From contig QPGO01000058.1 of NCBI GenBank assembly GCA_008632985.1, forward strand, positions 248,001-312,000: 64,000 nt of DNA. Direction: 5' to 3'. A program made the position numbers and the translations under genes. Numbering within the stretch: position 1 is the stretch's first letter; the number at the start of each line of letters is the position of its first letter. The notes beneath the pieces were generated by a model. It did not search any database, had not been told where the DNA came from, and worked only from the letters and a program-made list of their open reading frames with translations. Source of the DNA: Psammoneis japonica. Lineage: Eukaryota. This document shows positions 6,560-64,000 of this stretch, piece after piece.

Positions 6560-8280
6560 GCGCGTAGCTTGCAAGTGAAGACAACGGAAACGATGGAGAA
6601 GGAGGATGAACTGTGGGCACTGTGGGCTCGATTCCTGTCAAAGTTGCAGGGACAGGCTGTTTCATTTGACAGCCTTGCGCCGGGCAGCAACTGGAAAGGA
6701 GTTCTGCTGGCTGAGCTTGAGGTTCGACAACTTGGAAGCAAGGGTGATCTTGCCTGTCGTCGAGAAGAAAAAGGGGCAGCAAGCAAAGACTTTGGAAGAT
6801 GGCATCCTTCCCTTGTTGCAAAACATCAGTTTGTTGCCCCCTTCAGTTCCAAAACCAGGGCAGGACCATGCTCCAGCAGCGACAGCAGCCAGAGATGAGA
6901 ATTTTGGGACTTCCAAAAAACTGCTCACAACCTGCCACACTGTTGGTTTGACTGCGATGATGAAACTGGTCATGTTTCTTGCACAAGTGAGAACAATGCA
7001 GTGGTGCTTGTCAGGTGCAGTGGCCTTGTGAAAGATGTCGCCAAAGCTGTGGGGCTGGACCCCGAAACTTTCACAGGGGGTTGGCGCTTTCGGGTTGCGC
7101 TGCGGGATGCATGGGTTGCAACCTTGAGTGTGACTCCTGTTGGAGTGATCAAGGTAAAACAGCTGGAAGAAGACAAAAATGGCTCTGGCAAGAATGTTTT
7201 GGATGAGTCTGCAGTCCTGGGAGACGAGCTGTGCAACTTTCAAAAAAAAGCTCCCAAACTTTCATGGCGTGAGTCCTGCCTTCGGCATGCGCCAGCCACG
7301 TTTGAGTCCTGGAGATGAGTCTGTTGGATTCCCCAGGTTGATGTGGATGTCAACAAGATTGTCAAGACTTCCAGCCCCTTCCCATTTTTGCAGCCCACTC
7401 ACTGCTCCAAAAAAGAATGCACCGGAGAAGAAAACGTTGCCCCCAGGACTCACTGCTCCCAGCAAGACCAACACCCTGTTTCGCATGACACTGCAGACGA
7501 TGATGAGATCATTGAGGATGGGGATGAGAGAGCAGCAACAACCACAGGACCCTTTGCAGGTCCAAGAATTGCAACAGAGCAGATGGCAGCCATTGCTGCA
7601 GCAGCACTTTGCAAAATGGCAACCAAGGCAAAACAGAGTCCATCATTTGGTGACCCACCATTTGACAGGCTAACAGAATGAATGCTGTTGCATTTTACAA
7701 AGGGAAATTCACAGAGCATTCACTGGCACCACATGGGGCATTTGGAAGGAGAGGGGAAGTGGAGCAAACACACAAATCCAAAGAAGTGCTTGCATGCCAT
7801 TCTTGAAGGCCTGGGGAGGGGCTCTGAGATGGACAGGTTTGGTTGATGTGTGCAAGTTCAGGGAGCCATTTGCATGTTAAAATTTCTTGTCAAGAATAAA
7901 AAAGAAGAGCTGCACAATGATGTGAAACATGAGATGGAGAAATGGAAGGCAGCACATCTGGAATTCAAGGTTTGTCGTGAAATGTGGTGTGGGTGAGACA
8001 CACTGCAGAGGCCTCACTTTGCATTGGTGGAGCCTGCCCACAGGCTAGATGTGTCAAAGCAACACTGCAGGCTAATTCTGCCTCCAAGGGTTTGGTTCAT
8101 TTGGACATGGCCTGGCGAAATATGGGATTGCATGCTGGTGGAGGGGATCATCATGCCGTTTGGTGTTTGATTTGGGTCGAGTCCGAAAGGCGACTGCCGG
8201 CGATGAGCATTGGGTGGAGCACGCAATTGCAAACTTGGAACAAGAGGCGTAGTGGCGCAGTGTCCTGGAATCATTGCTGA
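6560..8280. mobile_element. Degenerate, TpA-depleted probable transposon remnant, family not identified
   Basis: Near absence of TA, TG/CA excess, and broken ORFs with TGA stops. Same composition as the identified TE blocks. Boundaries approximate. Confidence 0.5.
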
Positions 8281-9933: not shown

Positions 9934-11391
9934 CACCCCTGTGCAAGGGAAGAGCATGGATGTGATGGCATGGTGATGTAATTTAGACGTCATCCAAAAT
10001 TTTTTGCTCGTTGGTGAGCGTGCCATCCAGGGACATGACATCAACAGTGTGGAACGCATCAGTCCGATCAAGCCAGGTGGACAGGTTTCCCTGAAATGTC
10101 TCGATTTTAGTCCTCCTGTTGGAGTGGACAATGCACTTGGAAGAAGAAACATTTGTCCCCAACAATGCCAATGGCTGGTTCGAAACCAGTGCAAAAGGAC
10201 GGTCGCTGCAGGTGACAAGGAATGACACATGCCTGTGCCTCATGTCCAATGGTGACGGCCAACAGCACAGGGGAATCTTGAGTCCAACAAATTCCTCCAT
10301 TGATGAAACAATCCGGGTGTTGCAAGTTGCGGTCATGAGTGGGAAGGGTGTCGAAGCGACCGATGGCAGGTGAGCAAAAAAGCGATTGCGTAGCTCCTGG
10401 AATTCAGAACGAAAGGATAGACCAAAACTGACGAAAAGATGGATTTCATCAAGAGCAACAAGCTGCAGCAAACCCTGGTGTGCGGTGCACAGAAGAAATT
10501 GCAACAACCGCTCATTGGAAACAATCAACTGAGGGGAAGCAAACAAAAACACTGTCCCACGAACCGGCAATGAGATGCGCCGCATTCTGTCAAAAAAATG
10601 TTCCATGCGATTGCGATGTTTTGATGTTTCATCCAAATGAAAAGAGGTGACCGGACCGTGTTCTTGTTGTTGTGTGGCTCGTGTCATAATTTTGCGGCAC
10701 TGATCGGAACCCAAGGATGAAAGAGGGATGACAGCGAGGATCATGCCATGGCGGCAGATGCCAACGACATCACGGACAAGGGATTTGCCGCCTCCTGTGG
10801 GTCGGACTGGCAACAATGGCTGGGCTTGTTGATTTTGTGTTGAAGCAAGCAGTTGGGAGCTAACCTCAACCTGCCAACTGTGAGGTTGCTTGCCGAACAC
10901 ATTGATGGAGACGTCGATGAAGGCCTGGGAGGAGGGTGCGGGTGTCGTTGTAGAGTTGGGGTTGATAGAGTCATCTGTGTCAGGCACTGCAACAGTTGAA
11001 AAAAGGTGCAAGTTGTTGCTGTGTAATGCCACCAACAACACACACTCGACAGCGGTAAAAATCACATTGCCTGATGCAGCGGAGTCATTGTGGACACCGC
11101 CAACAGGCGCCGCGTCGTGGGAAGGCGTGGACGACGCATCGCTCGACATCATCATGGTGGACTGTTGTTGACGCGTGTTTTTTGTGTGTTGCGCGAGAGG
11201 TGAAAAATGTTCGAGTGCTGCCCTCAGTGTTTGGTGGCCAGAGAATTAGTGGGGGTGCTATGGGATGGGAGTTATTACTTAACGACATATAATTATTAGT
11301 GCGTATGTGAATATATGCAACTCAACGCATGTGGTGATGTCATCACACACCACACCCACCTGCATTCCATAGCAGCCCTTGCACAGGGGTG
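9934..11391 (-). mobile_element. DNA transposon with 16-bp TIRs and 9-bp TSD carrying a RecQ-like helicase (AcademH-like, non-autonomous)
   Basis: TIRs CACCCCTGTGCAAGGG (9934-9949) and CCCTTGCACAGGGGTG (11376-11391). Identical flanks CCGCGCACC at 9925-9933 and 11392-11400. Confidence 0.85.
9983..11155 (-). pseudogene. RecQ-like SF2 helicase, C-terminally truncated
   Basis: PHSWQ (Q motif), PTGGGKS (I), IPLSSLGSDQ (Ia), DEIH (II), SFRSEF, MTAT (III), CIVHSN (IV). Motifs V-VI are absent. No Tyr in 390 aa. Confidence 0.85.
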
Positions 11392-20997: not shown

Positions 20998-22666
20998 CTA
21001 GGGTTCTTCAATATCATCAGTGCCGCTTGAACCGTCAGGATTCATCAGCTTTTGTTTCTGCAGTGCCAAACCTGCTTTGCGCTCCTGAAGATCGTTCATG
21101 TGGTTATCGATCTCGCCCTCAAGTTCTTCAATTTGATCGAGAGAGAGGTCATTGTATTCTACGTCCTTTGGCAAGAGTGGAACAGCCGGGTACAAATGGC
21201 CAGCCTCGACGCTTTCTTCTTCGTCTTCTTTGCCGCCCTTGCGCGCAGCACGTTCCTCGGCAGTGCCAATGTAGACTTCGTCACGCTTAAAGCCTCGGAC
21301 CTTCTTGTCAATCTTGGCAAGGAACCATGCTCCAGAGCAAATACCGGTGGCCTCCAAAAATAGACAGATGCGGAGGAACAGGTAGGTGATGGGATTTGAC
21401 AAAAAGGCAATGGGAAAGGCAGACGCGACAAGCTGCCACGAGATGGATCCGAGAATGGTAGTAATGGTGGCACCAAGGAAACCAGTTTCAAAGAGTTCCT
21501 GGAGTCCATCGCTAACACCCCACAGGTTGCCCTTGCCCTCGTCCATCGAGACAGTGGTGACACGAGAGATAATGAAGAAGCAAGACACGACACTGAGCTG
21601 ACGGCCAATCATGAAATTGGGAAGGTTGTGTCCCCTGCCCTTGTAGAGGAGATCGCAAGTCATCTTGGCACACTTGGCTCTTCCACGCTCGTCCTTGGTA
21701 AGCTTGGCGACGGCAAAGAAGGCAATCTGCATACCTTCGAGCATACCAACGACAGACATGAGGAGGAAGAACAGAATCACGGCAACTGCCTCGGGAACAC
21801 CGTCCCACATGGTGGTTTGTCCTTGGAAAAGAGCAGATAGGGTGACTGCCAAGGCAAAGCCGAGGACGACAAACGAGACAAGGACACGGAACCAGAAGAA
21901 AAGAGATTGACCGGTGCTGCGCGGAGGCTCCTTGGATTCGATGGGCTTTCCAGCAAGGTATCCAACACAAATCTGGATGAAGTAGGAGAAGTGCATGAGA
22001 CCGGTGAATTCAATCGCCCTGGCAGTGTAGAGCGTAAAGAGGTTTGCATAATCGTTGAAGTAGTCGAGCATACAGAGCGATGCGTTGACCTGCGACTGCA
22101 ACTGTCCGACCTGTGCCGTAAAGAGGATCATGGCGAATCCGGTGACAAGGAAGATGTCGACAATCCACTTAGGCAATCCCCAGAGTTCAGCACCTTCGAT
22201 AGGGGCTCCACACTTGTTGATGAGGAAAACGATAAAGATGACCATGAACTGACGGCCCATAAGGTAGCGATCGAGGTTATCTCCCTCTTGGGTCATAGCG
22301 TTGCCCTTGTAAGCGATCGGGTGGGTGTCCTTGTAGAGCTCACGGTCAATCGGGTGAAGACCAACCAACGAAGCCTGTCCGCCCTCGACGAACGAGAGCC
22401 AAATCAACATCACCCAAAGGATAATAAAGGCAAGAGCAGGATGGTATTGCTCGGACCACGCCGTCTGCCTTGTGAAGATCAAGCCCATAACGATCACCAG
22501 CGAGAACACAAGGAGAATGGTGGAGTAGAACATCTTGAAGATGCTGAGAGCTTTGTGCAAGTCCGATTTCTCTGTAAGGAGGAACGAGCGAAAGAGCGAC
22601 CGAATGAGCAAACAACGCAGAGGAAAACAACAAGCTACGTACGAGAGAGACAGGCTTACCACTCAT
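20998..22666 (-). CDS. SIT: Silicon transporter
   Basis: About 10 TM segments, EGGQ, GRQ, EGMQ and GRQ motifs, CMLD motif and C-terminal coiled coil. Exon 1 ATGAGTG (22666-22660), intron 22572-22659, giving MSEKSDL. Confidence 0.97.
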
Positions 22667-23299
22667 GGTTGAACAAACTTTTCTTTGTTTTGGTTGTAAT
22701 GTACCGTACTAAAGGAGCTTGTCGATCAAGCAACACAGAAAAAGAAAAAGTGAGACGATTTTTGCGGATTGGAGGCGATTGGGATTTTGAGCGGGAAACG
22801 CTCACTCCGCCTGCCACGTCCGTTAATTTTTCTCGTGTAACGTTTTTCGACGAATTATTTATGAAAATGTGACGTTACCGTTGGTAGGATCTTGGTTCCT
22901 ATCGCAAAATTTTGTCGTTACGGGTTTTGTACGACAATCTACGAGCTTAAGATTAATACAAAGGAATACACATACATCTACTATCATTCTAATGCACTCA
23001 TGTCGGTTTCTGTCAATCCCATAATGTCTCTACAGCACGTACGGTTCGTACAGTATGGAGTGTCATTGGTTTGTCCGTGGTACTTTACAGTATGTTTTGT
23101 ACGATAGCACTCAAAATATGAAAGATATTCAACTCCGAAAGTGCAAGATTTTGATGGACCGGGCACAGGCTCAATTCCCATGACTGGCCCATTTTTGCAT
23201 CATTTGGCACAATAAACTCCTTCAAAATCGAAGGTCCGCAACATAAAAGGAGCCAAGGACATTAGAACCTTGCTCACCAGGCGTGTGGTCGATTGGGAC

Positions 23300-25800
23300 G
23301 CAGACAAGCACAAGATGTTGGTCCAAGCGACTGAACCACTGCTTGAGAGCAATCTAAAAACCACCCAGAAGGAGGAGATCATGCCAGAGCAGCACGCCAA
23401 GACATCAAACAAAATGGCACTGCGAGGAAACCCCCAAGAGGAGCAGTCAGGTGCATTTCAGAATGTGAAAAAGGTGGAGTGCTTGCACCCAGTGCACCAT
23501 GTTTGAGGTTCTGCAGACCCGAGGATTCCGGAGGAAGACCAGGGTGTCATGATCACTGACAGCGCCATTGAGACCATCACACGATGACTGTCCAGGAGTG
23601 CAGGCCTTGGCAAAGCTGATGCCAATGCAGTGTTGCAGTGGCTGCTCCGCTGCAGAGAAGCCACTAGATTGCTTCGAGAAAAGCGCTGTGCATCATGTTC
23701 GCAAACTGGCTGGCCAACGAATTGCCCCCATGGGCTGCCTGTCGCGCAACCATGGCAAAGCAACTCATCACGCCAGACAAAAATCTGGGCATCCATCCGG
23801 TCAGCATGGGGGGGGGGCATGGCAGAGAGCCACAGCCAAAGCTGTTCTCCCAGTTGCTGGAGCAGAGGCCAAAGAGGCCTGTGGGATGGATCAGCTGTGT
23901 GCAGGTCTTGAAGCAAGCATCGAGGGCACGCTTCACACACTGGGAACAGCACAAGTTCCAGGATGACTGCATCTTTCTCTTTGTTGGTGCCTCCTCTGAT
24001 GGATTCAATGAAGAGAACTGGGTTCCAATGTTGCACAACGTTGGACACTTCTGGCCATCTGGCACAAGGTTTGCCTTCAACTGCTGCAAGCACTGCTAGA
24101 GCATCCACATCATCTGCAAACACTTCGGTGTGGCAGCCTGTGGATTGAGTCTTCTCCCACCAGTCCACAAGCTCAATGAAACCTTCATGGTGTGATGACT
24201 CTCCACCGCAGCCAGGAAATTCAATGTCATCTGGGAATTTTTCTTGACTCTTTGAGCCGAAGGCCCCAAACATGGATGCTGCCCTGCTGACAACAAAAAG
24301 AACAGCATCCCAGCAGTCTCCCAGAATGCAACCCAGAACATGCCAGGGTGCACTTTGGAAACCTCGGCTTTGCCATCTGCTCAGGCAGCTGCTGCCATGG
24401 AGGCTTCATTGGAGAGATGGACGCATGCAACCAATGGCCAGTGGAGAAAGCCAAGTCATGCACCTTGGTCATCCAAGGACTTGCAAGTGTTGCATTCACC
24501 ACCCACAGACTGCCGTGCCGGTCTTCAAAAGTCCCTGCAGCACCAGTGGCAGTGTGTCCAATGCATGGCAAAGGACTGTGGAGAATCCTTCACAGAAGTG
24601 GAATGCATGATCCAGCACCAATTTCTTCCAGCATCAATTGGCAAGACCTTGGCTGACAATGATCCAAGATCAGCCCTGTCTGCCCTCCCAATCAAATTTG
24701 CAAAGCTGTCCATCCCTTGTCCAATGGAGTCTGCACCCAAAAACCATGAAGCAAGTGCTCTTGCATGCTCTCATGTGATGGACTCACTTTGTGGCTGCTC
24801 AGATTTTGCTTCAGCAGTCCACAAGGGCACCATGTGCAAAGTGAAACAAGAAGCAGCCATTGGGAAAGCCAAGATGCACAAGGAGAAACTCAAGACAACC
24901 CTCCAGGCTCTGTCTGACCTCAAAGCCAGAGCTGTCAAGCACAGCACCAGCACTGGAGCATGCCCATCAGTGTGCTCATTGATGCTAAATGGCACAGAAC
25001 TTTCTTGTCTAGAATTCCACCATGCACTTCACCTGTGATGCAGCAGCACTCCCCCCAACCTCCCTGAGCACTGCAATGGATGCTGATGCAAATTCTCTGT
25101 CAACCATGCCCTGCAGTGCAAGAAGGGCAGCACAGTCACATCATGACATGACGACATGATGTGTGATGACCTTTGTGACCTAATTGGAAAGGCCTTCAAG
25201 CCTTCCTGTGCATGCAATGAACCCCTCATCAACCCTGTTGGTTGCACCTCAGGAAGCCCAGGTGCCTCCAACAACTCACAAGGCACTGCAAACTCCAACA
25301 TGTCCAAGGATGGCAACTGCACAGATCTTCTGTCTCACCAAGGATGGCAACCGCACAGATCTTCTGTCCAAAGGATTTTGGGATTGGAGGACAGACACCA
25401 TCATGGATGATGTTTGTGTTCCAGACACGGATGCAGAATCACACCTGTCCAAGACACCAGAACAAGTTCTGGAACAACACAGATGAGAGAAAAAGTGCAA
25501 GCACCTCAAGTCCAGCCTTGAGCAATGTCGCCACTTTGCTCCCTTTGTTGCATCATGCAATGGGCTGTTTGGCAAAGAAGCCAAGGCATCACTGAGCAAA
25601 ATCTCTTCCAAACCAGCTGACAAATGGCAAAAGCCTTGTTCAGAGGCATTTGGCTGTGTCAATGCAAGAAAGAGCATCGCTGTGGTGCGGGCGACTCACC
25701 ATTGCCTCAGGGGATCATGCATCCCTTTGTCCCAGATCAGTTCCAGATGTCCCCAGCCAGTGGGAAGATGGCACTGGTCTGTCCCTGTGCTGGCACCAAA
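23300..25800 (+). mobile_element. Degenerate non-LTR retrotransposon, CRE-clade-like (RT + restriction-like endonuclease)
   Basis: DKNLGIHPVSMG, EACGMDQLCAGLEASIEG, ASSDGFNE, WCDD (YxDD-like), EGPKHG, GGFIG, LPIKF, zinc knuckle CNGC..FSVNHALQCKKG..HDD, RLE-like DLLSKGFW...DTDAES...EKK and RATHHCLRGS. Many TGA stops and frameshifts. Confidence 0.85.
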
Positions 25801-28800
25801 TGACACCCTGCTTGGGCCAGACCACCACTGCCAAGAACAATTGCCAAATGCCAACTCATGGACAACCTCTGCTCATGGCCCAATGCAGCCAAAACACCAT
25901 CACAAATGCAACAAACAGTGCCAGATCTCATTTGAACATCGCGCACTCAGATGACAGAAACCACACGCAAAATCCACCCCTCATTTGCATGACCACATCA
26001 ACCACATGATGCCCATGTTTTCCCATTTTTTCCCAAATCAAAGGCTGAGCACACACAAAACATTTATTTTTGTGTGTGCACTTGCCTCTTTTGATTTTCA
26101 AAACAATCAAATTTGAAGGAGGTCAAATTTGAAGGAGTCTAATGTGCCAAACTGTGCAGACAATTGATCTCTCTTGCATGATGGATTGCAGATCACCTGG
26201 GGCTGGAACAGGCTGCCATCATTTTGCCAGCCCAAGCGCTCTGCTGGGGACTCCCTTAACAACACTTTGTGAGATTCCATCAGAAGTTCCAGCAAAAAAC
26301 ATGCTGACAAAACAGCACAGAGAAACAAGCACCCCAACATGCCCACACCCCCACCCATCAAGTTTCTTGCTTGCACCAGCAAAAAGAATGCAGTCAGAGC
26401 TTCAGCATTTTTCAGTCTGCAGGCTCTGTTTGTCTTTTTGTTCATTGCAAATGGACAGGTTGATGATTTCAGTGGCTTTCAAGTGCAAAGTTCTTGCAAC
26501 CTTGTCTTGCGCCACTTCCCCCCCCCCCCCCCCAAAGAGAAGTCAACACATGAGTGGCACCATTGTCCCCTTGCATCTGAGTTGGTCTTTGTGGCCATCA
26601 TCATTGATGTGTCTCAAAGATCAAGTTTGGCCACCTTGTGCACTGACTCTGTGTGATGCAAGACTGAAAAAATCCTTTGAATGCAACAGCTCCATTTTGG
26701 CAAGAACAAGTGTGCATTGTTTCTCCATTTCCTTCATGGCGCATGTCATGCCCTCTTTGTGTTGTTGCTTGGCACCACTTCTGCAATCACAAAGTTGAAA
26801 GAAGTTGTCAAAAGCAACCACACAACCACCGCGGTGATTTGTGCAAAAAACACATCATGCCACTCCATGTGAAACATGTCCACAAAAAAAAGATTTCAAT
26901 GGGTGCTTTGACATGCAATGTGGATTTGAAGAACACCAACTGGAGCCAGAAAAAATGGCTGCCAGCAAGGTGATGGGTTGGTTTCAATTGGAACATTTGG
27001 CAGTGAAGCCAGTTTCCAAAGTTGATCCTTTTGACACACATGGTCAACCCACTGTGAGCCTGAGCTTGCTGCTGCATGCTGCTTCTTGGCTGCACCACCA
27101 CCAACTGCTTTGCAGCCTAGAGAGCTGCCCTTGTCATTTCTGGCTTTTGGGACCTGCACTCTTCCTGCCTTGTGCAGATGATGCTTGTTGCAGCTGTTGC
27201 TGGCAAGAAGGCCAAATCATCTTTTGAAGAGTTCACACGCAGCGGCATGCAGAGCACAGTGCTCTTTTGTGCAACTTTTGTGCCTGGTGTGTCTCTTGCC
27301 ACTGTCACTTTTCCCTTTGCTGCAACCTTTGCAACTCTCCTCAATGACAAGAGGACCACAATTTGGGGAAGGCACCAGTGCCGGTGCTTTGATTGTTGTC
27401 TTTTTGATCATTTTGTGCATTGTCAGTGCATGCTTGAGGGTGTGCAAGTTGCCTTTCATGCCACTGCCAAGATCCAAAAGTCTGAGTGTGGGGAGAAAGA
27501 AGGGTGCTTTGTTCCCACAATGACCTGTGGCCTCCTTTGCTGTGCAAGGGCAAGGCAAGCACCCTTTCTGAGCTCATCATTGGATGTCACCTCCTGGTTT
27601 TGCTGTTTGTGGTGATGTGTGTGTTTTTCATTGCCTTCATCACTTCTGTTAAGATCAAGGAAGGAGAAGAGAGCATCTCAAGTGTTCTGATTCTCTCCAA
27701 GAGAGCTCTTCTTCAGAGTGCTGATTTGCTTGGAGCGCTCATCATCCTTGTCACCACAATCATTGCCTCTGTGTCATGGCAGCTTGTGGCCTCCACCTGT
27801 CATCAGAGCAGCAATGGCAAGTCTCCAAATGATGTGGAGCTCTCTGCAAACCACCAGCGACAGTGACAACACCACATGATGTGCTGGCATGAAAGAGCAG
27901 AGGAGTGGATGCATTCTTGGTGAAAGAGGATGACCCACCCAGTCACTGCTGTCATTGTGCAGAACAATGTGGAGCAGCCAGCAGAGACAAAGAAACTTCA
28001 GGGTCTGGAGCACCAATCTTGCCTTGACATTGGCAGGAAGGGCCATCAATCCTGCAGACAACAGTGGCAACCAGCCTGAATCATTGCAGACAACTTGCTT
28101 GCAGGCACCACAAAGACACAGCAGACTTGATGTTCTGTGGACAAGGAGGTGGTTGCAAGATCCATCTGGGAATCCACAGCTGGTGCATGTCTTTCACTTG
28201 AGGTGCATCAGCAGCAGCATGGTTTGGAATCTGCAAATGCCACCACACATTGGAGCTCAATCAAGAGGTCACAGCATCAAGACAAAGCAGCTGTTGCCAA
28301 GAGCACATGATGCATGGGTGTCACAAGCAGCAGTCATCATTGGCAACAATTCTTCAGGCATGGGGCACCCCCCAGTCACAGGAGGCATGTTCACAGGCAG
28401 GTGCAGGTGCTTGCATCACTGGGTTGTGAAAAACAAATCCTTTGGAAGCAACCAACATGCAGTGGGTGAGCAGCATCCAATGAGCAGCTGCACAAAAAAT
28501 GCTGTGGCTGCAAAAGTGCCACAACTGCAACCAAGCTCTGTGCAATTGTGTTGCAGCTGCATTTTTCACAGACACCACAAGGTGAAGCAGCCAGATGGCA
28601 TGGGGACTTGAGGGTCAGTGCACACTGGCAGCAGCCACAATGGGTGATGCAATGTGATTGACATGGTGCACTCACACAAAGCTGCAACAAGAGATTGTCT
28701 GTGCCAGCTGACAATGGATTTGTGCAATTGAAGTGCACACCAGGATTGGAGCAGCTGCGTGCGCGCCATGCACCAATTGCAATGATTGCTTTTGTGTGAT

Positions 28801-30170
28801 CTGGCAAATCTTGAGAATTGAGAGCAAATTGGATGTTGGCTGCAGTCAAGCACCCACCTTGAGAGGCAAGATGCAGAGTCATTGCCCACAGGAGTTTTCA
28901 CCATGAGAGAAGATTGCTTGAAAATCAACCACACAACAATGGGGGCAGCCAGTCCTTCTTGGGGATCTCTTGTTGAGAGTGGAACAAGGTTGTTGAGGAT
29001 GCAATCATGAAACAGCTCAGTGACACAATTCTCAGTTTGAACACACTTGAAATCATCAAACAAACAAACAAAGCTGACAATTGAGCCACCAGAAATGCTG
29101 CTCAGATGTTTTTCACAGCTTCAGGGGTGCACAAGAGTGCACGCCAGAAATGCTGCCTGAGTTCTGGTGAGAGCACCAGCAATGACATGACCTTTCCAGA
29201 ATTGCAAGCTGCCATGTGGTGCAAGTGCACAAAAATGTTGTTCCAGTGACTTGGAGAAGGCCAGCATTGTTTGGCAGCCCAGAAAAGATGCAGAGATTCA
29301 ATGACACACAGGAAAATCCAAAACTCACTTGTGATCAAAATGAGAGCGCAAGCTTGTTTGGCTTGCAATGTGACAAACAAAATGCAGCAGCCAACTCAAA
29401 GATGCAAGAGGACAATTGCAGGGCCACAACCTGTCAGAGCAGTGATGGCCAAGTTGAAAAATGATGTGGAACTTCCTGCAAACTGGCAGCATCAGAGTGA
29501 TGGCGACACACGTGTTGTGCCAGCAAGAAAGAGTGAGAGAGGCAGATCTGCTTGGAAAACAACATCTGCTCAGCTGTCTGGGTCTGACCATCATCTGTGG
29601 AGTTGGCATGCTGACACTGCCTTTCCACCACTGCCTTCCTTTCCAACCCCTTCAGATGCACTTTTCTCTGTGTCTGTCTCTGTGCTGTTGAAGAGGCCAC
29701 TGGCAGCAGCACCGCCTCTGTTCTGGAGCCTGGGTTTTTGTTGTGTTGCTCCTTTTCTGTCCACAAGAAGATTGCTGGTTTCAAGCATGATGGGTTCACA
29801 TTGATGCTGCCAGGGAATGTGCGGCAAAGCACATGGCTGACAATGACTCCGCCCACGTTGGAGCCAGCCCCACACTGCGCAAAAGCAAGCCGCCGCCTTT
29901 CAGCAGGATGACACAAAGGACTTTGTGTGAGAGACTGCATTCTTGAAAAAGATGAGGAGCTCAAAAGAGAGATCACCAAATGCATGGATGAGATTGAGCA
30001 GCACCAAACAGATTTGGAAACTCAATGCCAGAAGCTGTTGGCTGCTGCCGGGCTCAGTGGTGGGCTTCTTTGGCAGCACTGGGGATGTGCGACCCCCGCC
30101 CCCAAGAGAGAGAGTGCTGGGGCAAATTTGCACAGCATTTGCCTTGTCTTCATCACAGTGGCACTGAATT
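25800..30170. mobile_element. Further TpA/CpG-depleted degenerate repeat DNA, families not identified
   Basis: Continuous with the CRE-like copy. Almost no TA or CG, and only spurious Cys/His/Gln-rich ORFs. Confidence 0.55.
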
Positions 30171-46499: not shown

Positions 46500-48830
46500 G
46501 TCTTGTACATTGTTCAATGCAAATTGAGGTCCACTCCAACCACAACTCAAAGGAAGCTGCATTTGAGAGAGCCACATGCCTTGTTCATCATCAACAACAT
46601 TGAAAGTCAGGGCGGCCACAACCTCCCCTCCTGTGTGCTCCTCAAGTCAAAAAGACAAGAGAACAAGAGTGCCGGCCGGTTTTGTGGCTCAAGTCAAACC
46701 AAAGAATCAGCTGCCATTTTTTATTCAACCACCATGACAATTTGTCAAACACTGTGAATTCTGGGTGACTCGTGCTGTCTCTTGCTTTTTTTGCGCGATT
46801 GCTCCGACCTGTGTGCCCCGCTCTTTCTTGTGTGTTTGTTGCTTCTGGCAGGGGCATGCAGCACAAGCAAAAACAAAGCAAAAAGTGCAGTGCTCTTCCC
46901 ATTGGCTCAACCAGAAAATGCAGCAGTGTTGAAGCATTCCCCACAAGCAAGCTCTCAGCTGGGTGGCTGCTGGAAATGCCCCGCCCCCCTTTGCTGGCTG
47001 TGCCAACAGCAAAGCGATGTCCCACTTGAGATTTGATTTGGGCCTTTGATGATCACACAATGGCCTGCCTCCAGCAACAATGGGAGTGCTTGATGTGGAA
47101 GGAAGATTGGAAAAACAGTGAGTGCATGGACAAATCCAGGAAAGCAGTCGTTGTCATGCCGTGGTTGGGTGCATCATGTCAAAGGGCCCGACTTCAACCT
47201 TTGAAAAGCAGCACAGCACAAGTTCAGCAAGTTGTGCGTGGGTTGGCATTTGGTGGCCAATCTCATCTGCTCTGCAAGAATGCAACAGACATCAAGGACA
47301 AATTGCAGCATCCTTCTCAGGAGCACATGGAGGAGCCCAAGTGTGACACTCTGATTTCTTGCACCACATTTTGCGCCATTTGCAAGATGATGGGTGCTGA
47401 CGTTGCAAGTGCATGTGGACAGTTGATTGCTGCCAGAACAAGGAGGGTGCAATGACTGTCCCTGACATTGAGGACAGTGCTGCTCCTCCTTGTCCCACCA
47501 CTGCCAGCCAGATTCGAAGAAGCAATCCACAGCCAGAGAGTCAATGTCCAAAGAAGAAGGCAAAGATGTGGCATGAGCAAGGAACTTGGAACATCTTGGT
47601 GGCCTTGTTTGCCCCCCAACAGTGGCAACAGTGTTGCCTGCACTTAGTCTGTTGTTTGTTCTGTTCCTTCACCTTCTTTGAGACACAAAAAAGAGATCCT
47701 GTGCATTGACAAAGAATCTCATTGCATTGCTTGGTTGCTTTGGACCGATGACCTTTCTGTGTCACCAAACCATCTCTGATCCTCACTGGCTCCAAGACTT
47801 CACTGACAGCAACTGCGAATCTTGGCATGGACGTGCTCAATCGTTGCACCCTGTTTCCTTGGAGAGCGGTGCCTCCGCCCAGCAGCATGGCAATTCGAGA
47901 GTGATCTCAAAATGTTTGCTCAACTTGCTGTTCATCGTGTGGGTTTCTTTGCCCTGTGCGTGATTTGCGTGCACTCTGCTGAAGTTGTCATCCTCAAGAT
48001 CTGCATCATGATTTTGACTGCCTGGACCTTGGAACTTGGAATGCCCCCGGTTCGCGTCATTTTTGGCCGTCCGATGTTTCGATGCCTGCATTGCGACTCT
48101 GGCAAATGACAAGGACAAAAGGGTGAAGTGCTGCTCGTGCCGACTGCTTGTCAACGCCGCACTGCCCGCGTGCATCGTGCTCCACAGCGTTTTGTTTCGC
48201 GAATTTGGGAGGCCTGCGTCTCACTGGTGCTTGTTGTGTGTGGCGTTCAGAGAGGAGCCGCCAGTGGGGCACATGCCGCCGCTTTCACAACGACCGAAAT
48301 TTTGGTTGCCTTTCTAGCGACCCTTCAATTTCATGCTGGGAGGACACTGGTTGGTCTTTGTCACCGGAGACATGTCCAAATGTGCAGCAATGGATGACCC
48401 TGATCTTCAAGCCGGGGCGCGAACAGCGCATCAGGCGACATGGCTGGCTTTCTAGCCTCTTCAAGAGTGTTTTGATTCGGAACACACACAGCTCTCTCTT
48501 CGGCCGCGTGGCAACTGCCACAGAGGTGCGTTTGTGCAAAGAAATCACAAGGAGTCCAAAGGCATCACGTCATGTACAAGTCAATCAGCCCTCGTAAGAA
48601 TTTGGCTGCTCGGAGGTGAGCGGACGCAAACGAATTAGCCCAAAAGCATCACATGTCAAAACCAATCAGCCGCTTGGAACTCGCATGCTTCCATGCCCAA
48701 ATTGTCACAATTTTTGATTCTCTCCAAATTGCAAGCCTTGTGTTTGGTCATCACTGCTTCCACTGCTGCTGGTTCGGACGCCAAGAAGAAAGAGGATGCG
48801 CCTTTCCTGTGAGCGAGCCCAAGAAGGACG
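46500..48830. mobile_element. Degenerate TpA-depleted probable transposon remnant(s), family not identified
   Basis: Almost no TA over ~2.3 kb. CpG is partly retained in 47800-48550. No recognisable protein. Confidence 0.5.
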
Positions 48831-49291
48831 ACAAGGCACAGGTGGTTCCAAGAAGGACGACACGGTGCAGGCATTAAGACGGTTTCGAAAGATGCGGAGA
48901 CGAGCCGAAAGCTCCCGAGGAAAACGACAAGGAAGAAACCGACGAGGAAATCGTGACGAGCCATACAAAACGAGAAACCCATGAAAACTTGTAACTTCTC
49001 TCCCTAAACAAGTCGAGAGGAGTGTAATTAAGTGGTCAAAGCACTTTGTTATGTGAAATGTCCAAGTTTCCATCGTCCGGGAGAGGGTTCAAGTTGGCGA
49101 ACCGACTTTGGCGATTTGTGTAGAAAACATGCTAAGCTCTACGTACATAGAATCTGGCCCACTTTTGTACCCGTACCACCTTAAAAAAAACTTTTCTCGC
49201 TGATGGCTCCCGCTGTCCATGACGATGCACGATGCCACGGACAGCGGTAGTTATGTGAGCTGCAATTACAGCTAAGCCTGTGTTGCGTAGC

Positions 49292-51350: not shown

Positions 51351-51929
51351 AGTTGAATGGAACTACTGGATACAATCATGATGAAGAGAACACTGTCAAT
51401 CTCGATACCGTATTGTTTTTGTGTTATTGTCAAGAGAGGTTGAAGAATGAAGAAGTGAGCGGGCGGGGTGTTTGGCTTCGCATTCGGTGGGGCTAATACA
51501 TTCGCGACATCATGTCCAAGTCATTGTTAACGATGGTTCTACACAATTCTTCGGCATAAAAGACAAAGCTGTGAGCAGCACGATTACAATCGCTTTTAAA
51601 GGAGACATTGTGGAGACATTGAATTTGTCCCAATCGTAAATTGTGTACATACGTACTACCAAAGCATTCTCTATTATGTCCCATTTTCGTCGTAAGCGAA
51701 ACGAGGTGTCAACCTTTTTGTCCTTCTTACACATATCCGGTCTTTTTGTCCCGTACGGGGGAAAGAAGATGTTCAAGAAATGACTGGTTGATCGTGACAT
51801 CCCAATCACTGTTGCAGAAGTACAACTCGTGACACATCATCGCGGTTGTTCTTCGCCCCCCGAAACTCCCTCATTCTGTGATGTGATGATGTCAGTGTGT
51901 TCTTTTTGAAAGATCGACATCTGTCTTAG

Positions 51930-52086: not shown

Positions 52087-52140
<54 letters not shown>
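52087..52140. repeat. (AC)n microsatellite
   Basis: About 27 AC units directly after the gap. Confidence 0.98.
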
Positions 52141-52142
<2 letters not shown>

Positions 52143-55100
52143 AGCCAGCTGACAAAGCCAAACCCTTTCTCCACCCACTCTCCATTGTGAGTCCATGCGT
52201 CGACCAACACGTGTGCACTTCACACTCCCGGGGTCACCTCATAGACTCTCGGAGATGCCTGACGGACGGTGCGCCAGGGTCGCATGCAGGTGGTTTGTCG
52301 CTGTGCCCTTCCGGATTTGGCTGAATGCACTGCAGAGCTTTCTGCACAAAACATGCGAGAAAATGTGCCGATTGGATGATGATCAATTTTGCCATCCCAT
52401 TGATGCCACAGCTTTGTGACGTCCAACTGATGTTGTCAAACCAAACACAGAAGCGTGTCATGCCATTGGAGTGGAAAGAATCGGCGGCTGTTTTGTTCAA
52501 TTTTGTCCAAGACTGCACAACTGCAAAATCTTTACTTTTTCGGTCACCGCCGACACACGTTGGTGCATGTCATCACATGTTCCACTTCGTTTCACCTTGT
52601 GAGTCATGACATGGAAACGGATGTCTCTCTTTGTCATTGCCCTGCAATGGCGTTGCCTTTCTTGCAACTCAAGAGTCGTTTTTTGGTGTTCGTTACAAAA
52701 ACGAGTTTTTGTTTTTTTGCAAGAAATGCACTCACTCACAGACTGCGCTTTTTCTCATCATGAAGCAGGCACCCAGTCTTCGCAACACCATGGTGTTGTT
52801 TTTTCATGTCTGTGTGAGACGTTGTTGGACTGAAGCTCGGAGATTCAAAACCAACGTAGTCTGGGGACTCATTTTCGGTCGGGCATGACATTTTTCCTGT
52901 TTTTTGAGATTTCGAGACAGTTGTGCCAATTTCTTGCTGCTTGGGGAACATCAAATGCAGCGGTGATGCTCCAGCAGTGCCAGCCAGTTGATGAGGTGGG
53001 ATTTCACATCACAATGTTGTTGATTGTGAGTTTGTAAACTCACTCAATGGAGTTTGCACATTGGTCTGGTTCAGCACGGTGAATCAGAGTTGGGCGACCA
53101 TGCAATGCTTCTGAAGCCAATCAGAGCAGACACAGAGGGGCATTGGCAGCTTTCTTTGGTGCACTTGTTGTCAAGGCAACAGCGACTTCATTTGGAGGTT
53201 GATGCTTGCAATTCTTTGTCGCTTTGAGTGTGCTGGGTGTGGTGCAGTGGTGCACACAGCAAATGGTTTCTTTAAAATGAATTGCAGATCTCAGCTGGAC
53301 AGGCAACCAGATGCAATTGGCATCTCCAGTCTTGCACAGTCTCGCCTTCAATGATGAGCAACGTAAAAACACAGAGCATTTAGAGTCGTGTTTTCCCTGC
53401 AAAATCACAAGAAATCAAGGTGACCGTGGTGAAATCATGCAAAGGAGGGGATTTGTGCATGTCACTGCGAGTGCAGCAGCCAAGTCAGCAATGCACCGTG
53501 TCTGTCAAAGCTGCAGTTCAACCATGTCTTCTTCACACATTGATGTGCAACATCCCGGCTTTTAAAGCCACAAAACATTCACCACAAAGAGAAAGAGTGC
53601 GATTGGCAAGCCATCACATTGTGAAGAGAAAACAAGACACGACAAATCCCAGTTTGAGCATGATGACACTCAAGCATTGATGTGAAAACTGACACTGGAC
53701 TCAACGCCCTTGTAAAAGCACAACTTTCAATGCACAACCAAATTGAAGCGAGTGGAAGAAGATGATGAAATGAGACGCCATGTCAGCGTGACAAGCGACA
53801 AACATGCGACATTGCACACAGCCAGCATTGGGCATGTTGCAACAACAAAAAAACCAGTTTTCTCCATTCCAACACCATGGCGCACTTCAACAGCAAGCAT
53901 CTGAATGGACACTGAACGGTGCAAAGCACAGCTGTCGATGTGCCGATGAAATTGATCATCGTCAGAACGGCACATTTTCTGGTGTGTTTTGTGCAGAAAG
54001 CTCTGCAGAGCATTTGGCGAATCACGGAATTGCTCGGTGACACATTTTTTGCCACCGTCTGTCAGAGGCATCTCCGAGACACCCCTTTGCAAGTGGTCCC
54101 ATGGGATGTGGGTGTGGGTGATGTGTGATGACATCATTGCATGCGTTGAGTTGGACATGTTCACATTCTTGCGAACATGTGCATGTCATCAAGTAAAAAC
54201 TCCCATCCCCTGGTTCAGGATTTTCCTGTTGCCATTGGAGTTTGTGTGCAGATGCAAAATTTGGCGACATTGCAACATGTAAAAAATTCATGACATGAAC
54301 AACACATCACCATGACATCAAAACCACATTCTCCACTTGCGAAGGGGTGTCTCCGAGAGTCCATGAGGTGACCCGGGTGTGCGAAGTGCGCGCGTGTCGG
54401 TCAACGCACAGACTCACGATGGAGAGTGTTCTCCACCAGAGGTGGGCCTGTCTGGTGCAGTGACTGGGCAAGCTCTCCCTTTGTGCCTTCTCTTCTGCAT
54501 TTCTTGGCCAAATGACCCAAAAGGATGTTTTCATCCCCAAACAGTTTTTGAGGCAACGTGCTGGGGAGCTTGCCAAAGGAGGCCCGGGCGCAATGACAAA
54601 CTGATGTGGAAAAAGAAAAGTCGGGTTGTGTGGCTCTCTCTCCTTGTTGTCTCATCTCTGCCATGTTGCAAAAACATGGCAAAACAATGTTTCACTTTCT
54701 TGTGCTGCTGTGCAAAACAATCTCAAAGTGCTGGTGCCAAACATTTGTGCGCAATTTTTGGCGGGCCGCAGACTTCAGTGCGAACTCTACAAGGACTCAG
54801 CTTGGCTGAACCACATTTTCAATCATCTTTGTTTTCATCAAAAAGCTGAGTGTCACAATGAAATGAGAGTCAAAGTGTCACAAGCACCTGTGGGAGAATG
54901 TGGTTTGGTGGGTCAAAGTGCAGCTTTGAACATGTTGTAAGACAAACACATTTTTGCACTGAATCAAAAATTGCAAGGCATCAGTTTTTGAATGCTGACT
55001 TCTTCTGACATGAGGGTCAAAATTGCACTTTGACTGTGTCAATCCATGTCCACTCTTGATGATCTTTTGATGCACATGTGGTTTCCTGGTCTTGCGAAGG

Positions 55101-55449
55101 GGCATCGTCGTCATCCATTGCCCCCAAGTCATGCTCAGTTTCAAGTCCCGGGGGAATCTGGTCAAAATTTCTGCGGGATTCACCACACCATGAATGGAAC
55201 CTTCATGGTCAGTCACGTTTTCCAAAAAAAAATCCATGGTGAGAAAAACTCAAAGCAAGCCAATGCCAATGAAGTGCGAGGCACTCGATCCCTGCAGCGC
55301 GCAGCACATCTTGCTGCACCTTCATCAGCATTGCTGTTGGAATCGGAATCTTCATTGTCTGGTGGGTGAAGTGTTTCATGATCATCGTTGTTGACTTTCT
55401 TTGTGCCGGTGGGAGGCTTGCTCTCATTGTTCTCACTTTTTTCAAGGTT

Positions 55450-56620
55450 CTCGGGGTTTTGAGGGCACAGATGTGATGTGATTTGTTGGTGATCAATGCC
55501 ACCACATCACTTGCACCTTTTCTCAAAGTCATTGTTTCTTTTTCTTTTTCCTGCAGATTTGACGGCAATGCCAGTCATGCAAATTTCTCCGCACTTCTTG
55601 GATGCTGCTGCCTCCTCCAACAGAAGCCGCTTGATCTTTTTGCACTTGGACAATGCACGGCGATGCTTGACTTCCACCCCATTTGCACTCTTCCAAGCGC
55701 TTTCAATTTTTCTCGTGGGTTTTCAGTGACTTGAGGGTGTGACCATTGATTTCTATCCCAAGCTTGTCAAACACACTTGTGGTGCAATCCACCTTGCCCA
55801 GGATGCTTGTGCCAACACTCATGTGCACTCTTGAGGCAAGTGCCATTGTTTGTGAGTGTGTTTTGGTCTTTGGCGCATGCTTTGCCACTGACTGATTTCT
55901 TGCCTCATTGATTTGCGAATCACAAGAGTGGCGGATCTCTTGCAAGTGCTCAGTGGCTGTGGACTTGTTGCAGATGGGCTTGAGTTGGGAACGCAAAATG
56001 GCATCCTCAGCATTGCATTGATGCTGACCCATTTTTTTGCCTTGTGACACAGAACACCAGGCTTTGTTGAAATGCACATGGTCATCAAAGTGGTGCTCCA
56101 GCACTGCCTTCATTTGTTTTTTGAATGCATCAAAATCACTTTCCTTGCATTGCTGGTTTGCATGACTCCAGTTCCACTTTAGATGCATCACATCCACCAA
56201 TGTGCAGAGAGACGTCTTCTTGGGGGCTTGTGCAAGAGCAAAGACTGGCTTGTGCACTGCTTTGGTTTGGGTGGTTCGGATCTTGCAACCAAGCTGGTGG
56301 GTTGATGTTGAGTGGAAGATTTCACAGATCCAGCAACCACCTGTTGTTGGGCTCTCTTGGTGTCTCAGCAATGACTCCCTTTTCCAGTTCTTCCTTGAAT
56401 GAATGTTGGCATTTGGTTTGGGTCGTGGAATCACCGTTGGCAACAACACACTCAACATGAACAGCCCGCCACATGCAGAGGTCTTTATGAGCAACAACAC
56501 ACCAGCTCATGACTCCATTCCTTTCAAGCTGCCCTCGCAATCAGTGGGACAGTCATGTTCTGGTTCGGGTGCATTTGGACTCTTTTTCTTCCAAGATTCA
56601 TGGAAGGAACATCTCTTGGC
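55450..56620 (-). mobile_element. Mutator-like (MULE) transposase pseudogene
   Basis: HDCPTDCEGSLKGMES, VECVVANGDST, AVLEHHFDDHVHFNKAWC and DSQINEARNQSVAKHAPK.KTHS resemble the N..GSS..ME / GDGDS / H.F.DH..C..WC / Q.NE..N..I...PK motifs of Mutator-like transposases. No Tyr in the 265-aa ORF. Confidence 0.7.
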
Positions 56621-59600
56621 CAACACAACCATCAAAAACAACGACACAAACAACAAACACAATGAGGAGAAACAAAATTGTCAAAAGCTTGCCATGCACT
56701 CTCAGTGTCACAGAGAGACCAAAACCCTCCTCCTCACAAAATGTCAAGCATCTGCTCCAAAAGTGCCATCATGCCCTCCGACGCATCACCCAACTCTCCT
56801 GTCTCCCGCCGTTCAAGAAGGCAAAGCACAAGCATGAAGGGGAAGATGTTCTCTTTCTTTGCATCTGCTGCAGACAAGACCCAAGCCTGTGGAAAATTTT
56901 CTGTGAAGAGTTGGATCTGTTTGATGAAACTGGGGGAAAAGGAGAAAACATGCAGCTTGCCCCAAGGGTTGTGAAGCGAAAGCGTTTCTCTGTTGCAGGG
57001 CTTCCGTTCTTGTCAATGGATGCTGTGGACATGGCTGGAACAACTGCAAACATCATCCATGGTGTGTTGAGGGTGGCATCAAGGAGACATGGCCTGCCCC
57101 AGGCCAGCACCATGGACACAATGGACCCGAAGATGAGATGTCCGACAGCAGCAATGGTGACATCAAAAGTGGTGTAAGTGGCTGTGATGAATGATCAGGA
57201 ACAATGAGAAGATCTGATGCCTTGTCCACACATTTGCCACTGCAAGATTCTCTCCTTGCACTGATCCCACGCAGATAAAATGGGCTCCAGTTTTGGTCGC
57301 AGATGAGTGTGGGGACTTTGCACTTTTTCCACACAACCTCTGGCATCTAATTTGTGCAGCTCTGCATGAATCCTCTGCAGACAGATCCAACAATTGGCTG
57401 CCACCTTAAAGAAAGGCTCCTTTGGTGCTTGTGTCAGTGGTGGGCACTGCTGTGTGTGTGCATCAAAAGGAGTCAGGAGAAGAAAAGATGTGCTTGCATG
57501 CTCCTTTGGCTTGCTGTTGACATCAACTTTGGCTGTGCTCACAAGTGCAACCTTCTTTATGAGACAAAACAATTCAAGATGATGTGACAAGAGCTCTCTT
57601 CCCCAGCAGAGAGAAAGAAGCAGCAGCAGCAGCAGTGCTGAGAAGAAGGGCGCGGCTTGGTGCCTCTGATGCTGGGAGCCTTGTTGGGAGAAAGATAAAA
57701 GCAGCAAAAGACTGCACTGCAAAGAAGTTCTGTGGAAGAGCACCAAGCACAGAGAAGCCAGGGGCACTTGCAAAGGACTCAGCAGGGTGGCCAAGGTGGC
57801 TGTGCACACCTCCTTTGTTCTGTCACTGGTGTGTTTGGTGAAAATTGGCACCAAATCAGAGCTCGCAAGCTTGTGTAGTTGGCAGAGTGTGACACAGAAG
57901 TGAGACCTTGCTTGGCTCTCAATTTGGCAGGTCAAAATGAAATGCAGAGCATTGCAAGATGAGCAAGCTGACAAGCGGCTTCTCCTCAAAGCACATTGTG
58001 AGACATGCCGCACTGACCAGATCACAAACATTTGCAAATTTTGAGTGGCTCTTTTTCTCTTTTGCAAAATCACATCACTTTTCATTCCAAACCTGTGCTG
58101 TCCTTTAAGGCAAGCTGGTGATGACAGATCTCAGCCCACCACAATCAACAACTTCCTGCCCTTTGCAACATCTCCATCAGCTCCTCTCACAGCTGATGAG
58201 AGCCATGCCACAAACCTCAATTTGCTTCAAATTGAGGCACTCTGCCACTGCAAAACAGCTGGCACTCAGGGCAACTCCACACACACAAAGCCTGTGTGCT
58301 TTTTTTGTGTGGCAAGTTGACAATGTGGCAACTTTCAGTTGTTGCAGCCAAACTTCACACAACCTGGTTGCTCTTCAAAGAAGCTGTGTGGTGGGCATGC
58401 AAGCAAGCAATGCAAAGAGCTGCAGTTGGTCTCACTTGTTGTGAGTTGACACACATGCTTGTTGCCAATGAGAATTCTTGTCACAACAGAAATCATCAAA
58501 CAGCTGCTGTCAACTGATCAATGCACAATGCTTTGTTTTTTTTTCAGCACCTTGCCCTTGAATCATCTGGCAAGTCATCTCACAAGTGGCAGCAACACAA
58601 GAGAGAGCCCTTGAGTTAAGAGCACACAGTGGCCTTGTTGGTGCTTGTGAACAAAATTGTGGGTTTGGCCTTTGTTGTGAGTCTGTTTCATTTTCAGGTT
58701 TGGTGGTGGTGTTTGCATGAATTTGTGCAGTTGCACAACACCACAAATGTGTCTGGGGCATTCCACAAAAAAACATTTGTCAGATTGATCTGAAGATCAA
58801 AGATGACTCAAGAAGTTGCTCATGCACAAAAATGTTTGAGACACGTGCTTTCAAAGCTGATGAGCAATCTGTTGTTTAGACGCAATGTGCTCACATTTGA
58901 GCTCCAGCTGGCAAATGATCACAAGCCTCTGCTCCTGCAGCTGCCATTGCAAAGAAAGACACTTTTTGGGAGGATTGCCCAATCAGACAAAATGCTGCAC
59001 ACCAGAGCTTGCATGTGCTGCTGCACTCTTGCCACCTCCAGCAAGAAGCTCACTTTGCTGTGCATGTTGGCTTCCTTGTGTGGTCCACTGGTGGCACAGC
59101 AGTCCAGCACAACAAAAAGGACAAAAAGAGCAGAGAGGAGTGGTGAGCAGTGCTTGAAGAAGGTGCGCATCAAAACAGTGGCCAATGCACACTTGCTTGC
59201 ACAGGGCTTTTGACACAGCAGTTTTCCCATGGTGTGTTTGGCAGTTTTGGGAAGATGATGTCTTCTTGCAGACTGTGAGCATGCCATCTCTTGACTGAGA
59301 AAATGATGAGAAGAAAGAGACAGCTTGAGCTCACACAACAAGATGTGAAAAAAGCCAGCTGCAGCAGCAGCGCATTTGAGGACAGCAAGAGAAGTGAGGA
59401 CAAACACTCTTCTTCTTGTGTGACCAATGTCCTGAAGATGAAGTGGTCCAAGATCAGTTTGTAGCCCCCAACACTGAGCCACAGCTAGATGAGAAGTGTG
59501 TGCTCATTTGCAGACCTCTCTCTCGTCGTGAGTTAAGAGCATGTCGCACCCAGCCTCTCCAGCACCATCGATGTGCCTTCTTTCCATTTTACTCAGTGCC

Positions 59601-63960: not shown

Positions 63961-64000
63961 CTCCCGGATTTAGATTCGGATTCCGCTCACCACCTTCCAA

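Follow-up and report, generated by a model that had tools for sequence, protein, structure and literature searches.

Blocks of DNA nearly devoid of TpA in the diatom Psammoneis japonica point to local, TpA-specific hypermutation

Features of the locus

The DNA described here is a 64-kb window of the Psammoneis japonica genome (GenBank assembly GCA_008632985.1, contig QPGO01000058.1, positions 248,001 to 312,000), to whose first base all coordinates refer and which is the whole scope of the analysis. The window contains six blocks in which the dinucleotide TA (TpA) is almost absent. The main one, block 3, covers most of a multi-copy element with terminal inverted repeats (TIRs) and a dead copy of a silicon-transporter gene, the intact neighbour of which lies outside the block. 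Dinucleotide frequencies are given throughout as observed/expected ratios (o/e).

The intact silicon-transporter gene is located at 21001..22533 on the minus strand. It matches the Pfam family Silic_transp with 692 bits and has unremarkable dinucleotide ratios (TA o/e 0.47, CG 0.82). Its closest relatives are diatom-type transporters with 75-80% identity, none of them identical, and because of these relatives the DNA of the window is, judged by its gene content, diatom nuclear DNA. The gene stands head-to-head with the dead copy, 5 kb apart, and serves below as the unmutated comparator.

The multi-copy TIR element occupies 2.96 kb at 23196..26158, with arms at 23196-23257 and 26081-26158 that contain two inverted repeats, I1 and I2, of 36 nt at 81% and 41 nt at 71% complementarity. 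The summed word depth of read contigs over 23069-26371 is 200-1000, compared with about 64 in the flanks. TA o/e of the element is 0.06 and CG o/e 0.22. No Pfam domain was found in it, and its 315-aa open reading frame (ORF) at 23461-24405 on the minus strand had no homologue in our search. Three joints seen in the reads (23200 to 26126, 23228 to 26181 and 23230 to 26171) might represent internally deleted copies of the element; their sides are 27-30 letters long and they are hence not used as evidence. A 31-nt segment within the element is tandemly duplicated at 25304-25368 with a spacing of 34 nt and 97% identity. This duplication is probably recent, as it is far better kept than the element's other repeats.

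The rest of the main block, 26159-30170, has single-copy depth and contains the dead head-to-head copy of the silicon-transporter gene, a region of about 4 kb that the preliminary description of this DNA did not mention. The first part of the pseudogene (27064..27794, plus strand) corresponds to residues 194-414 of the intact neighbour, with 2 TA and a CG o/e of 0.09; tblastn aligns it at 32-38% identity and Pfam Silic_transp matches it at 1.7e-14 and 8.3e-8. It is separated from the second part by a 1.8-kb insertion (27800..29632) that has no TA in 1833 bases and is bounded by direct repeats of about 150 nt (27800-27947 and 29431-29578). The second part (29633..30061, plus strand) corresponds by tblastn to residues 419-547, is likewise without any TA, and ends about 110 bases short of the right border of the block.

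Composition and borders of the TA-poor blocks

Blocks were delimited by gaps between successive TA dinucleotides together with sliding-window counts. Block 1 (6566..8250) retains 8 TA (o/e 0.078) at a CG o/e of 0.34, with TG and CA at 1.65 and 1.60; block 2 (9985..11247, minus strand) retains 9 TA (0.118) at a CG o/e of 0.78. The main block (23356..30170) is the most extreme, with 10 TA (0.023), CG at 0.147 and TG and CA at 1.93 and 1.78. Block 4 (46507..48875) has 7 TA (0.049) and CG at 0.51, block 5 (52087..59462) has 27 TA (0.053) and CG at 0.34, and block 6 (61559..63971), which extends to the end of the window, has 14 TA (0.089) and CG at 0.30. The left edge of block 5 coincides with an assembly gap (N at 51930-52086), and its true left border is uncertain because of this 157-base gap; over 51930-52140 the gap is followed directly by a microsatellite of the (CA)n type at the start of the block.

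The six blocks measure 1.3-7.4 kb and together cover 21,921 of the 64,000 bases. Inside them there are 75 TA (o/e 0.05), 419 CG (0.32), 2406 TG (1.78) and 2415 CA (1.74), compared with 1558 TA (0.55), 2367 CG (0.99), 2931 TG (1.14) and 3064 CA (1.15) in the 41,922 bases outside. At the outside rate 815 TA would be expected in the blocks, and the longest stretch without TA is 2520 bases inside (27650-30170) versus 222 outside. For the main block alone, 1000 base shuffles gave 429 +/- 15 TA, the lowest shuffle still holding 386. The combined loss of TA and CG amounts to 7.11% of dinucleotides and the combined gain of TG and CA to 7.70%; summed over all four, pyrimidine-purine steps keep their frequency (24.25% vs 23.67%), and the GC content is 0.49 both inside and outside. 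The TA depletion is thus genuine and extreme.

In terms of TA, the blocks end abruptly, within tens of bases. At the right border of the main block no TA occurs from 27650 until 30170, after which TA follows at 30170, 30192, 30194 and 30214; at the right border of block 2, TA at 11056 and 11247 gives way to closely spaced TA from 11259 on. In ten long ORFs outside the blocks the o/e of TA is 0.36-0.64, so the 0.05 inside is far from the level of genes, a similarity that the preliminary description had named as grounds for giving up its proposal. Its eye count of about a dozen TA in some 7 kb was fair (we count 15 in 23180-30170), its list of blocks agrees with ours to within about 50-270 bases, and the borders that it called fairly sharp are so.

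Confirmation from reads

Reads were available for one public sample (runs X1-X3 of one study), which is possibly the source of the assembly. A contig of run X1 (record 7; 4374 letters, depth 64.6) aligns to 26519-30889, where 6 letters differ and there are 3 gaps. The contig reproduces 3.65 kb of TA-free sequence and continues past the right border, at the same depth as the flanking unique DNA (60-68); run X2 had no cover over the main block, and no contig of run X3 aligned. At two of the five listed of the six letter differences the reads show TA and the window TG (26905) or CA (29435), which is not significant and is compatible with polymorphism at such sites.

These reads bear on the possibility that the pattern is an artefact of base calling on chemically modified DNA, for example with modified T or A called as C or G. 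Differences of one base in length between window and read contig, at 27027 and 27684, would be compatible with a long-read assembly, in which modified bases can cause systematic errors. Strand-dependent misreading should halve the depth or break the contig, and the X1 contig reproduces both the TA-free sequence and the border at full single-copy depth, so such an artefact is unlikely; the pattern is thus present in reads, which had been set as another test, if possibly in reads of the same sample. The broken reading frames and the replacement of tyrosine by cysteine or histidine described below also look heritable, and at each site one of the two products, TG or CA, is fixed. Taken together, we consider an artefact scarcely credible.

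A side observation concerns the intact transporter gene. Over 20999-22686 run X2 yielded a contig of 1469 letters and depth 645 with 21 differences from the intact transporter region, and run X1 also has variant contigs there. The organism therefore holds at least one further closely related transporter copy or allele.

Direction of change

Comparison of normal with depleted copies of the same sequence indicates what the missing TA has become. A self-BLAST in which purines and pyrimidines were collapsed gave mostly noise, and only matches with E below 1e-20 were used. Two repeat families have an unmutated copy in the window. The first copy (51415..51929) has 21 TA and 26 CG, and its depleted relative at 62295-62751 has 2 and 9; the two are 75.6% identical, or 89.5% after collapsing. 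The second (11262..11391), which abuts block 2, has 11 TA, and its depleted relative on the minus strand at 54080-54209 has 1. Of the 31 aligned TA in the normal copies, 13 read TG, 9 read CA and 2 remain TA in the depleted ones; 21 CG became 6 TG and 3 CA, with 7 kept. Other dinucleotides are kept at 53-88%. The pairs differ by 55 transitions and 37 transversions, a count that includes the CG to TG/CA and other changes of what are old copies.

The transporter pair gives the same picture for a host gene. In 664 bases aligned by the collapsed search, 9 TA of the intact gene correspond to 4 CA, 3 TG and no TA in the pseudogene, and 36 CG to 16 TG, 10 CA and 3 CG. None of the 11 aligned tyrosines of the intact protein is tyrosine in the pseudogene, and 4 are cysteine.

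Depleted copies also differ among themselves in a characteristic way. In six pairs of depleted copies, exchanges between CA and TG make up 15 of the 38 adjacent double differences. The direct repeats flanking the insertion in the pseudogene (116 identical positions, 52 transitions, 14 transversions) show 12 such exchanges among 31. These differences are those predicted if an ancestral TA or CG was resolved independently in each copy. The comparisons show that the depletion arose by mutation after insertion, independently in each copy, and is not a family trait; its direction is from TA to TG or CA, on both strands. The preliminary description, which had proposed a host process of this direction, is borne out by both the repeat and the transporter pairs.

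The loss of TA codons is also visible in the one recognizable protein-coding fragment of block 2, a truncated copy of a RecQ-like helicase element (homology at 11005-9833, minus strand; residues 1-392 of about 612). Its 420-aa ORF contains no tyrosine, versus 2.2% in nine genes of the window, and 4.8% histidine versus 1.8%. All of 36 relatives with 25-46% identity contain tyrosine (0.8-4.0%), and two columns with tyrosine in 10 of 10 aligned relatives read cysteine and histidine in block 2. The earlier claim that conserved tyrosines have turned into cysteine or histidine therefore holds for the helicase fragment and the transporter pseudogene; the examples originally offered for it (WCDD, EGPKHG, EKKCKH) come from an element that has no detectable relatives for comparison.

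Avoidance of certain dinucleotides is known from many viruses and from some mobile elements, and the blocks could in principle consist of elements that are TA-poor by origin or by selection, through a foreign or viral bias or avoidance of a TA-cutting nuclease, with nothing mutated in place. Copies of the same family differ exactly at TA and CG, however, depleted copies differ from each other by CA and TG, and a host gene duplicate is affected. The helicase relatives have normal TA and tyrosine, while here conserved tyrosines are replaced and frames are broken. An origin of this kind is very improbable.

Specificity, strands and relation to CpG loss

Adenines in other contexts are spared. AA, TT and AT stand at o/e 1.22, 1.24 and 0.85 inside the blocks versus 1.15, 1.17 and 0.91 outside, which shows a specificity for TA that leaves AA, TT and AT untouched. 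Because AA and TT are not depleted, mutagenesis by a polymerase of the eta type, which acts on WA (W being A or T) and had been listed earlier as a WA to WG candidate, is unlikely and was rejected: A after A is spared. The same three dinucleotides argue against GC-biased conversion.

The loss of TA is deeper and wider than that of CG. In the right part of block 4 (48001-49000) CG is kept at 0.86-0.97 while TA is at 0.08-0.21; this region and block 2, with low TA at near-normal CG, suggest two processes on overlapping targets, of which the TA process would be the faster. Diatoms methylate transposons at CpG, and the decay of methylated transposons by deamination of 5-methylcytosine (5mC) explains the half of the pattern in which CG becomes TG or CA. 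It cannot touch TA, and the preliminary description was right that 5mC deamination alone does not suffice. CG loss varies with context in the way that is usual for such decay, being strongest at sites flanked by W (TCGA 0.18) and weakest in GCGC (0.77).

The two losses might nevertheless share a cause if TA erasure were a by-product of repair in methylated DNA, in which T:G mismatches derived from 5mC recruit patch repair and an error-prone polymerase of the eta type or an over-active thymine glycosylase mis-corrects nearby A:T pairs. TA and CG depletion do share the same blocks and deepen together (0.023 and 0.147 in block 3, 0.118 and 0.775 in block 2). On the other hand, TA falls to 0.08-0.12 where CG still stands at 0.78-0.97, so prior CpG decay is not needed, the site specificity for TA is absolute, and AA and TT escape although polymerase eta acts on WA. 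We regard a repair by-product as quite improbable.

Strand-coordinated clusters of TG or CA were sought by run tests in the blocks and none were seen (z from -2.05 to +1.03 inside and from -2.11 to -0.38 outside). This bears on editing of element transcripts fixed by reverse transcription. The animal systems of this type, ADAR (A to I) and APOBEC (C to U), resemble the present case in being host hypermutation of selfish nucleic acids, and ADAR usually favours a U upstream of the edited A (discussed in 10.64898/2026.01.13.699255). Their substrates are RNA or single-stranded cDNA, and the changes they make come in strand-coordinated runs, whereas here both strands of resident DNA are altered site by site: there are no one-strand A to G runs in retroelements and no excess of TG or CA runs, the two products alternating along the DNA. 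The affected DNA includes a TIR element and a gene copy with a 1.8-kb insertion, both the insertion and the direct repeats around it were mutated at their present site, and the depletion also spans non-coding flanks up to the sharp borders. Fixed RNA editing is therefore very hard to credit.

The flanking bases have a real influence on how much TA survives. Relative to the outside level, residual TA is lowest in RTAY (R, purine; Y, pyrimidine), with 0 for ATAC/GTAT, 0.015 for GTAC and 0.017 for ATAT, and highest in YTAR, with 0.29 for TTAA, 0.25 for CTAA/TTAG and 0.18 for CTAG (3' flank effect, chi-square p=1e-6). A strand-specific TAY motif was considered and dropped: 8 of the 14 one-sided sites fit it, so that the flank has no predictive value for the outcome.

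Content and targeting of the blocks

The blocks would be silent, decayed copies of mobile elements together with the dead head-to-head duplicate of the silicon-transporter gene. Besides the helicase element and the multi-copy TIR element they include shared repeats, block 5 having repeat segments in common with block 6 and with 11262-11391, and one block also holds the host pseudogene. Pfam was run on 136 block ORFs of at least 90 aa and, for every block other than block 2, on translations in six frames that read through stops as X; only the DEAD helicase and Silic_transp were found, and no transposon domain. The earlier statement that unrelated classes of elements are affected is upheld by the TIR element, the RecQ-like helicase element and the host pseudogene. 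Its labels 'CRE-like LINE' (LINE, long interspersed nuclear element) and 'Mutator-like' find no such backing, there being no Pfam transposon domain in any block.

Old copies from the two repeat families that escaped mutation (51415-51929 and 11262-11391) adjoin mutated blocks, and the intact transporter is spared. Repetition alone is therefore not the trigger, and a pure repeat trigger was rejected, which leaves the earlier wording 'repeat-targeted', in the sense of fungal repeat-induced point mutation (RIP), doubtful. The target would rather be a silent or methylated chromatin domain than repetition as such. RIP in ascomycetes does share with the blocks a transition hypermutation confined to discrete regions, a shift in dinucleotides and the permanent killing of elements. 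It changes C to T, mostly CpA to TpA, and so creates TpA and lowers GC, whereas here TpA is destroyed, CA is enriched and GC is unchanged; it also mutates all copies of a duplication, whereas the intact transporter and the two repeat copies were spared. Neither CpA to TpA change with AT enrichment nor mutation of every duplicate copy is thus seen in the window, in line with the preliminary remark that RIP runs the opposite way.

Comparison with Bigelowiella natans

The closest parallel is a process reported in 2026 for the chlorarachniophyte alga Bigelowiella natans (Mettrop et al., bioRxiv; 10.64898/2026.01.13.699255). According to the available portion of the preprint, 230 of 231 mutations in two viral inserts of mutation-accumulation lines were A>G/T>C, all at TpA, at a rate of about 6e-7 per site per generation, raised about 1000-fold. 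The genome contains 124 TpA-poor clusters rich in CpA and TpG that are enriched for transposon domains, and a homologue of ADAT2 is proposed as the candidate enzyme. The preliminary description had known of no described mechanism for its pattern in diatoms; this preprint reports TpA-only A>G/T>C hypermutation of integrated viral DNA.

The diatom blocks agree with that system in three features. TpA changes to TpG or CpA on both strands (22 of 31 sites in the repeat pairs, with 2 kept, and 7 of 9 in the transporter pair), the affected DNA forms discrete regions of foreign or mobile origin (six sharp-edged blocks), and the loss of TpA is coupled to a gain of CpA and TpG in clusters (TA o/e 0.05, TG/CA 1.74-1.78). 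There are also differences. B. natans belongs to the Rhizaria and its rate was measured directly, whereas our case concerns a diatom and a signature read from the DNA itself. The viral inserts of B. natans are mildly depleted (Rho TpA 0.45), as opposed to the near saturation seen here (o/e 0.02-0.12). Unlike in B. natans, as far as the available preprint text describes it, the diatom depletion goes together with CpG decay and extends to a host-gene pseudogene and a TIR element; the words CpG, diatom and trinucleotide do not occur in that text. Full-text literature searches, which did not cover subscription-only papers, found no report of a TpA-erasing signature in diatoms. The signature has thus already been described in B. 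natans, as far as the accessible preprint goes, and is new for diatoms in the literature searched.

Proposed explanation

We propose, with a probability of about 0.8, that the blocks are silenced copies that were hit after their arrival by local CpG decay and by a separate TpA-specific A:T to G:C hypermutation. The first process would be the ordinary decay of methylated CpG, turning CG into TG or CA. The second, separate and faster, would turn TA into TG when one strand is altered and into CA when the other is. Both would be local transition processes that set in after the sequences arrived and converge on TG and CA. The TpA process would have run close to saturation, site by site on both strands, ending within tens of bases at the edges of a domain; by erasing tyrosine codons and the stop codons TAA and TAG it would leave the copies permanently dead.

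The agent would be an enzyme acting on DNA at TpA, where it modifies either the A or the T. The natural substrate of TadA has a U before the edited A, and we tentatively take a TadA/ADAT-type adenine deaminase to be the most likely candidate. ADAT2 of amphioxus is a tRNA deaminase that also deaminates DNA, both A to I and C to U (PMC10354150). In the part of that report at hand it deaminates DNA at A within GAA and at C within TCG, whereas the blocks show changes at TA and a CG loss without preference for a 5' T; a TCG-specific loss of cytosine of that kind was looked for in the blocks and not seen (0.235 after T, 0.255 after A).

Alternatively, thymine and not adenine could be attacked, by a TET/JBP-type oxidase that makes 5-hydroxymethyl- or 5-formyl-uracil at TpA in silent chromatin, which would mispair with G and yield T to C. 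Oxidised thymine is present in some protists, and 5-formyluracil mispairs with G. TA is its own reverse complement, so that T to C on one strand equals A to G on the other, and the present data do not separate the two. The window contains no candidate enzyme for thymine oxidation, no sign of such a base in diatoms came up, although no search was aimed at one, and we consider thymine oxidation improbable.

By analogy with B. natans, the proposed TpA hypermutation may serve as genome defence. A bolder version of this idea would have diatoms and chlorarachniophytes share an old defence guided by chromatin or small RNA, carried out by a dedicated TpA editor capable of acting on double strands (adenine deaminase or thymine oxidase), new to any organism and much faster than CpG decay. 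If this rather doubtful extension were true, a shared TpA-editing pathway would kill transposons and integrated viruses, along with any gene duplicate lying within a silenced domain.

Several observations weigh against our explanation or narrow it. All block statistics come from one 64-kb window, and the read check tests the assembly, not a second individual. Four of the six blocks (1, 4, 5 and 6) have no assigned content, as no Pfam domain was found in them even in read-through translations. A simple repeat trigger fails, as judged from the spared family members, and silent chromatin is deduced here only from CpG decay and broken genes. With respect to a deaminase, the flank has no power to predict which strand was altered, and the only ADAT2 shown to edit DNA, going by the accessible text of that study, prefers GAA and not TA (PMC10354150). 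As to generality beyond this genome, TA depletion is absent from all 28 metagenome loci of helicase relatives (TA o/e 0.56-0.99 in 28 of 28), and only 2 of 145 further helicase relatives are nearly free of tyrosine. These two, P0266 (no tyrosine in 291 residues, 5.8% cysteine) and P0275 (0.3% tyrosine), may be TA-erased copies in other genomes.

Significance

Diatoms are major primary producers, and their control of transposons is poorly known beyond CpG methylation. If the explanation proposed here is true, near-saturating erasure of TA would give genome defence a second layer, one that cannot be reversed, and a phenomenon of one rhizarian alga would be extended to the stramenopiles. The signature is easily computed (TA o/e below 0.1, TG/CA near 1.8) and can be mapped across algal genomes against candidate deaminase and oxidase genes, which would make the enzyme findable. 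A natural TpA-specific DNA editor, if there is one, would be of interest to base-editing research. The proposed process would be able to destroy gene duplicates that adjoin transposons, such as the silicon-transporter copy. It would also hide transposons from homology-based annotation, as illustrated by blocks in which Pfam recognizes a DEAD helicase and Silic_transp alone.

Other features of the window

Between blocks 1 and 2, a 292-aa ORF (8858-9733, minus strand) has a normal TA content (o/e 0.42) and matches no Pfam family. Nor does it represent the C-terminal half that the helicase copy lacks, as tblastn gave no match. A 740-aa ORF at 42347-44566 on the plus strand likewise matches no Pfam family and includes tandem repeats of about 390 bases (42698-43497 and 43076-43898, 84-86% identity); it has the highest CG o/e of the window (1.19), with TG and CA below 1. 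A further tandem duplication of about 175 bases, at 39792-40258 and with 86% identity, lies inside or beside an ORF at 39584-40498 on the minus strand.

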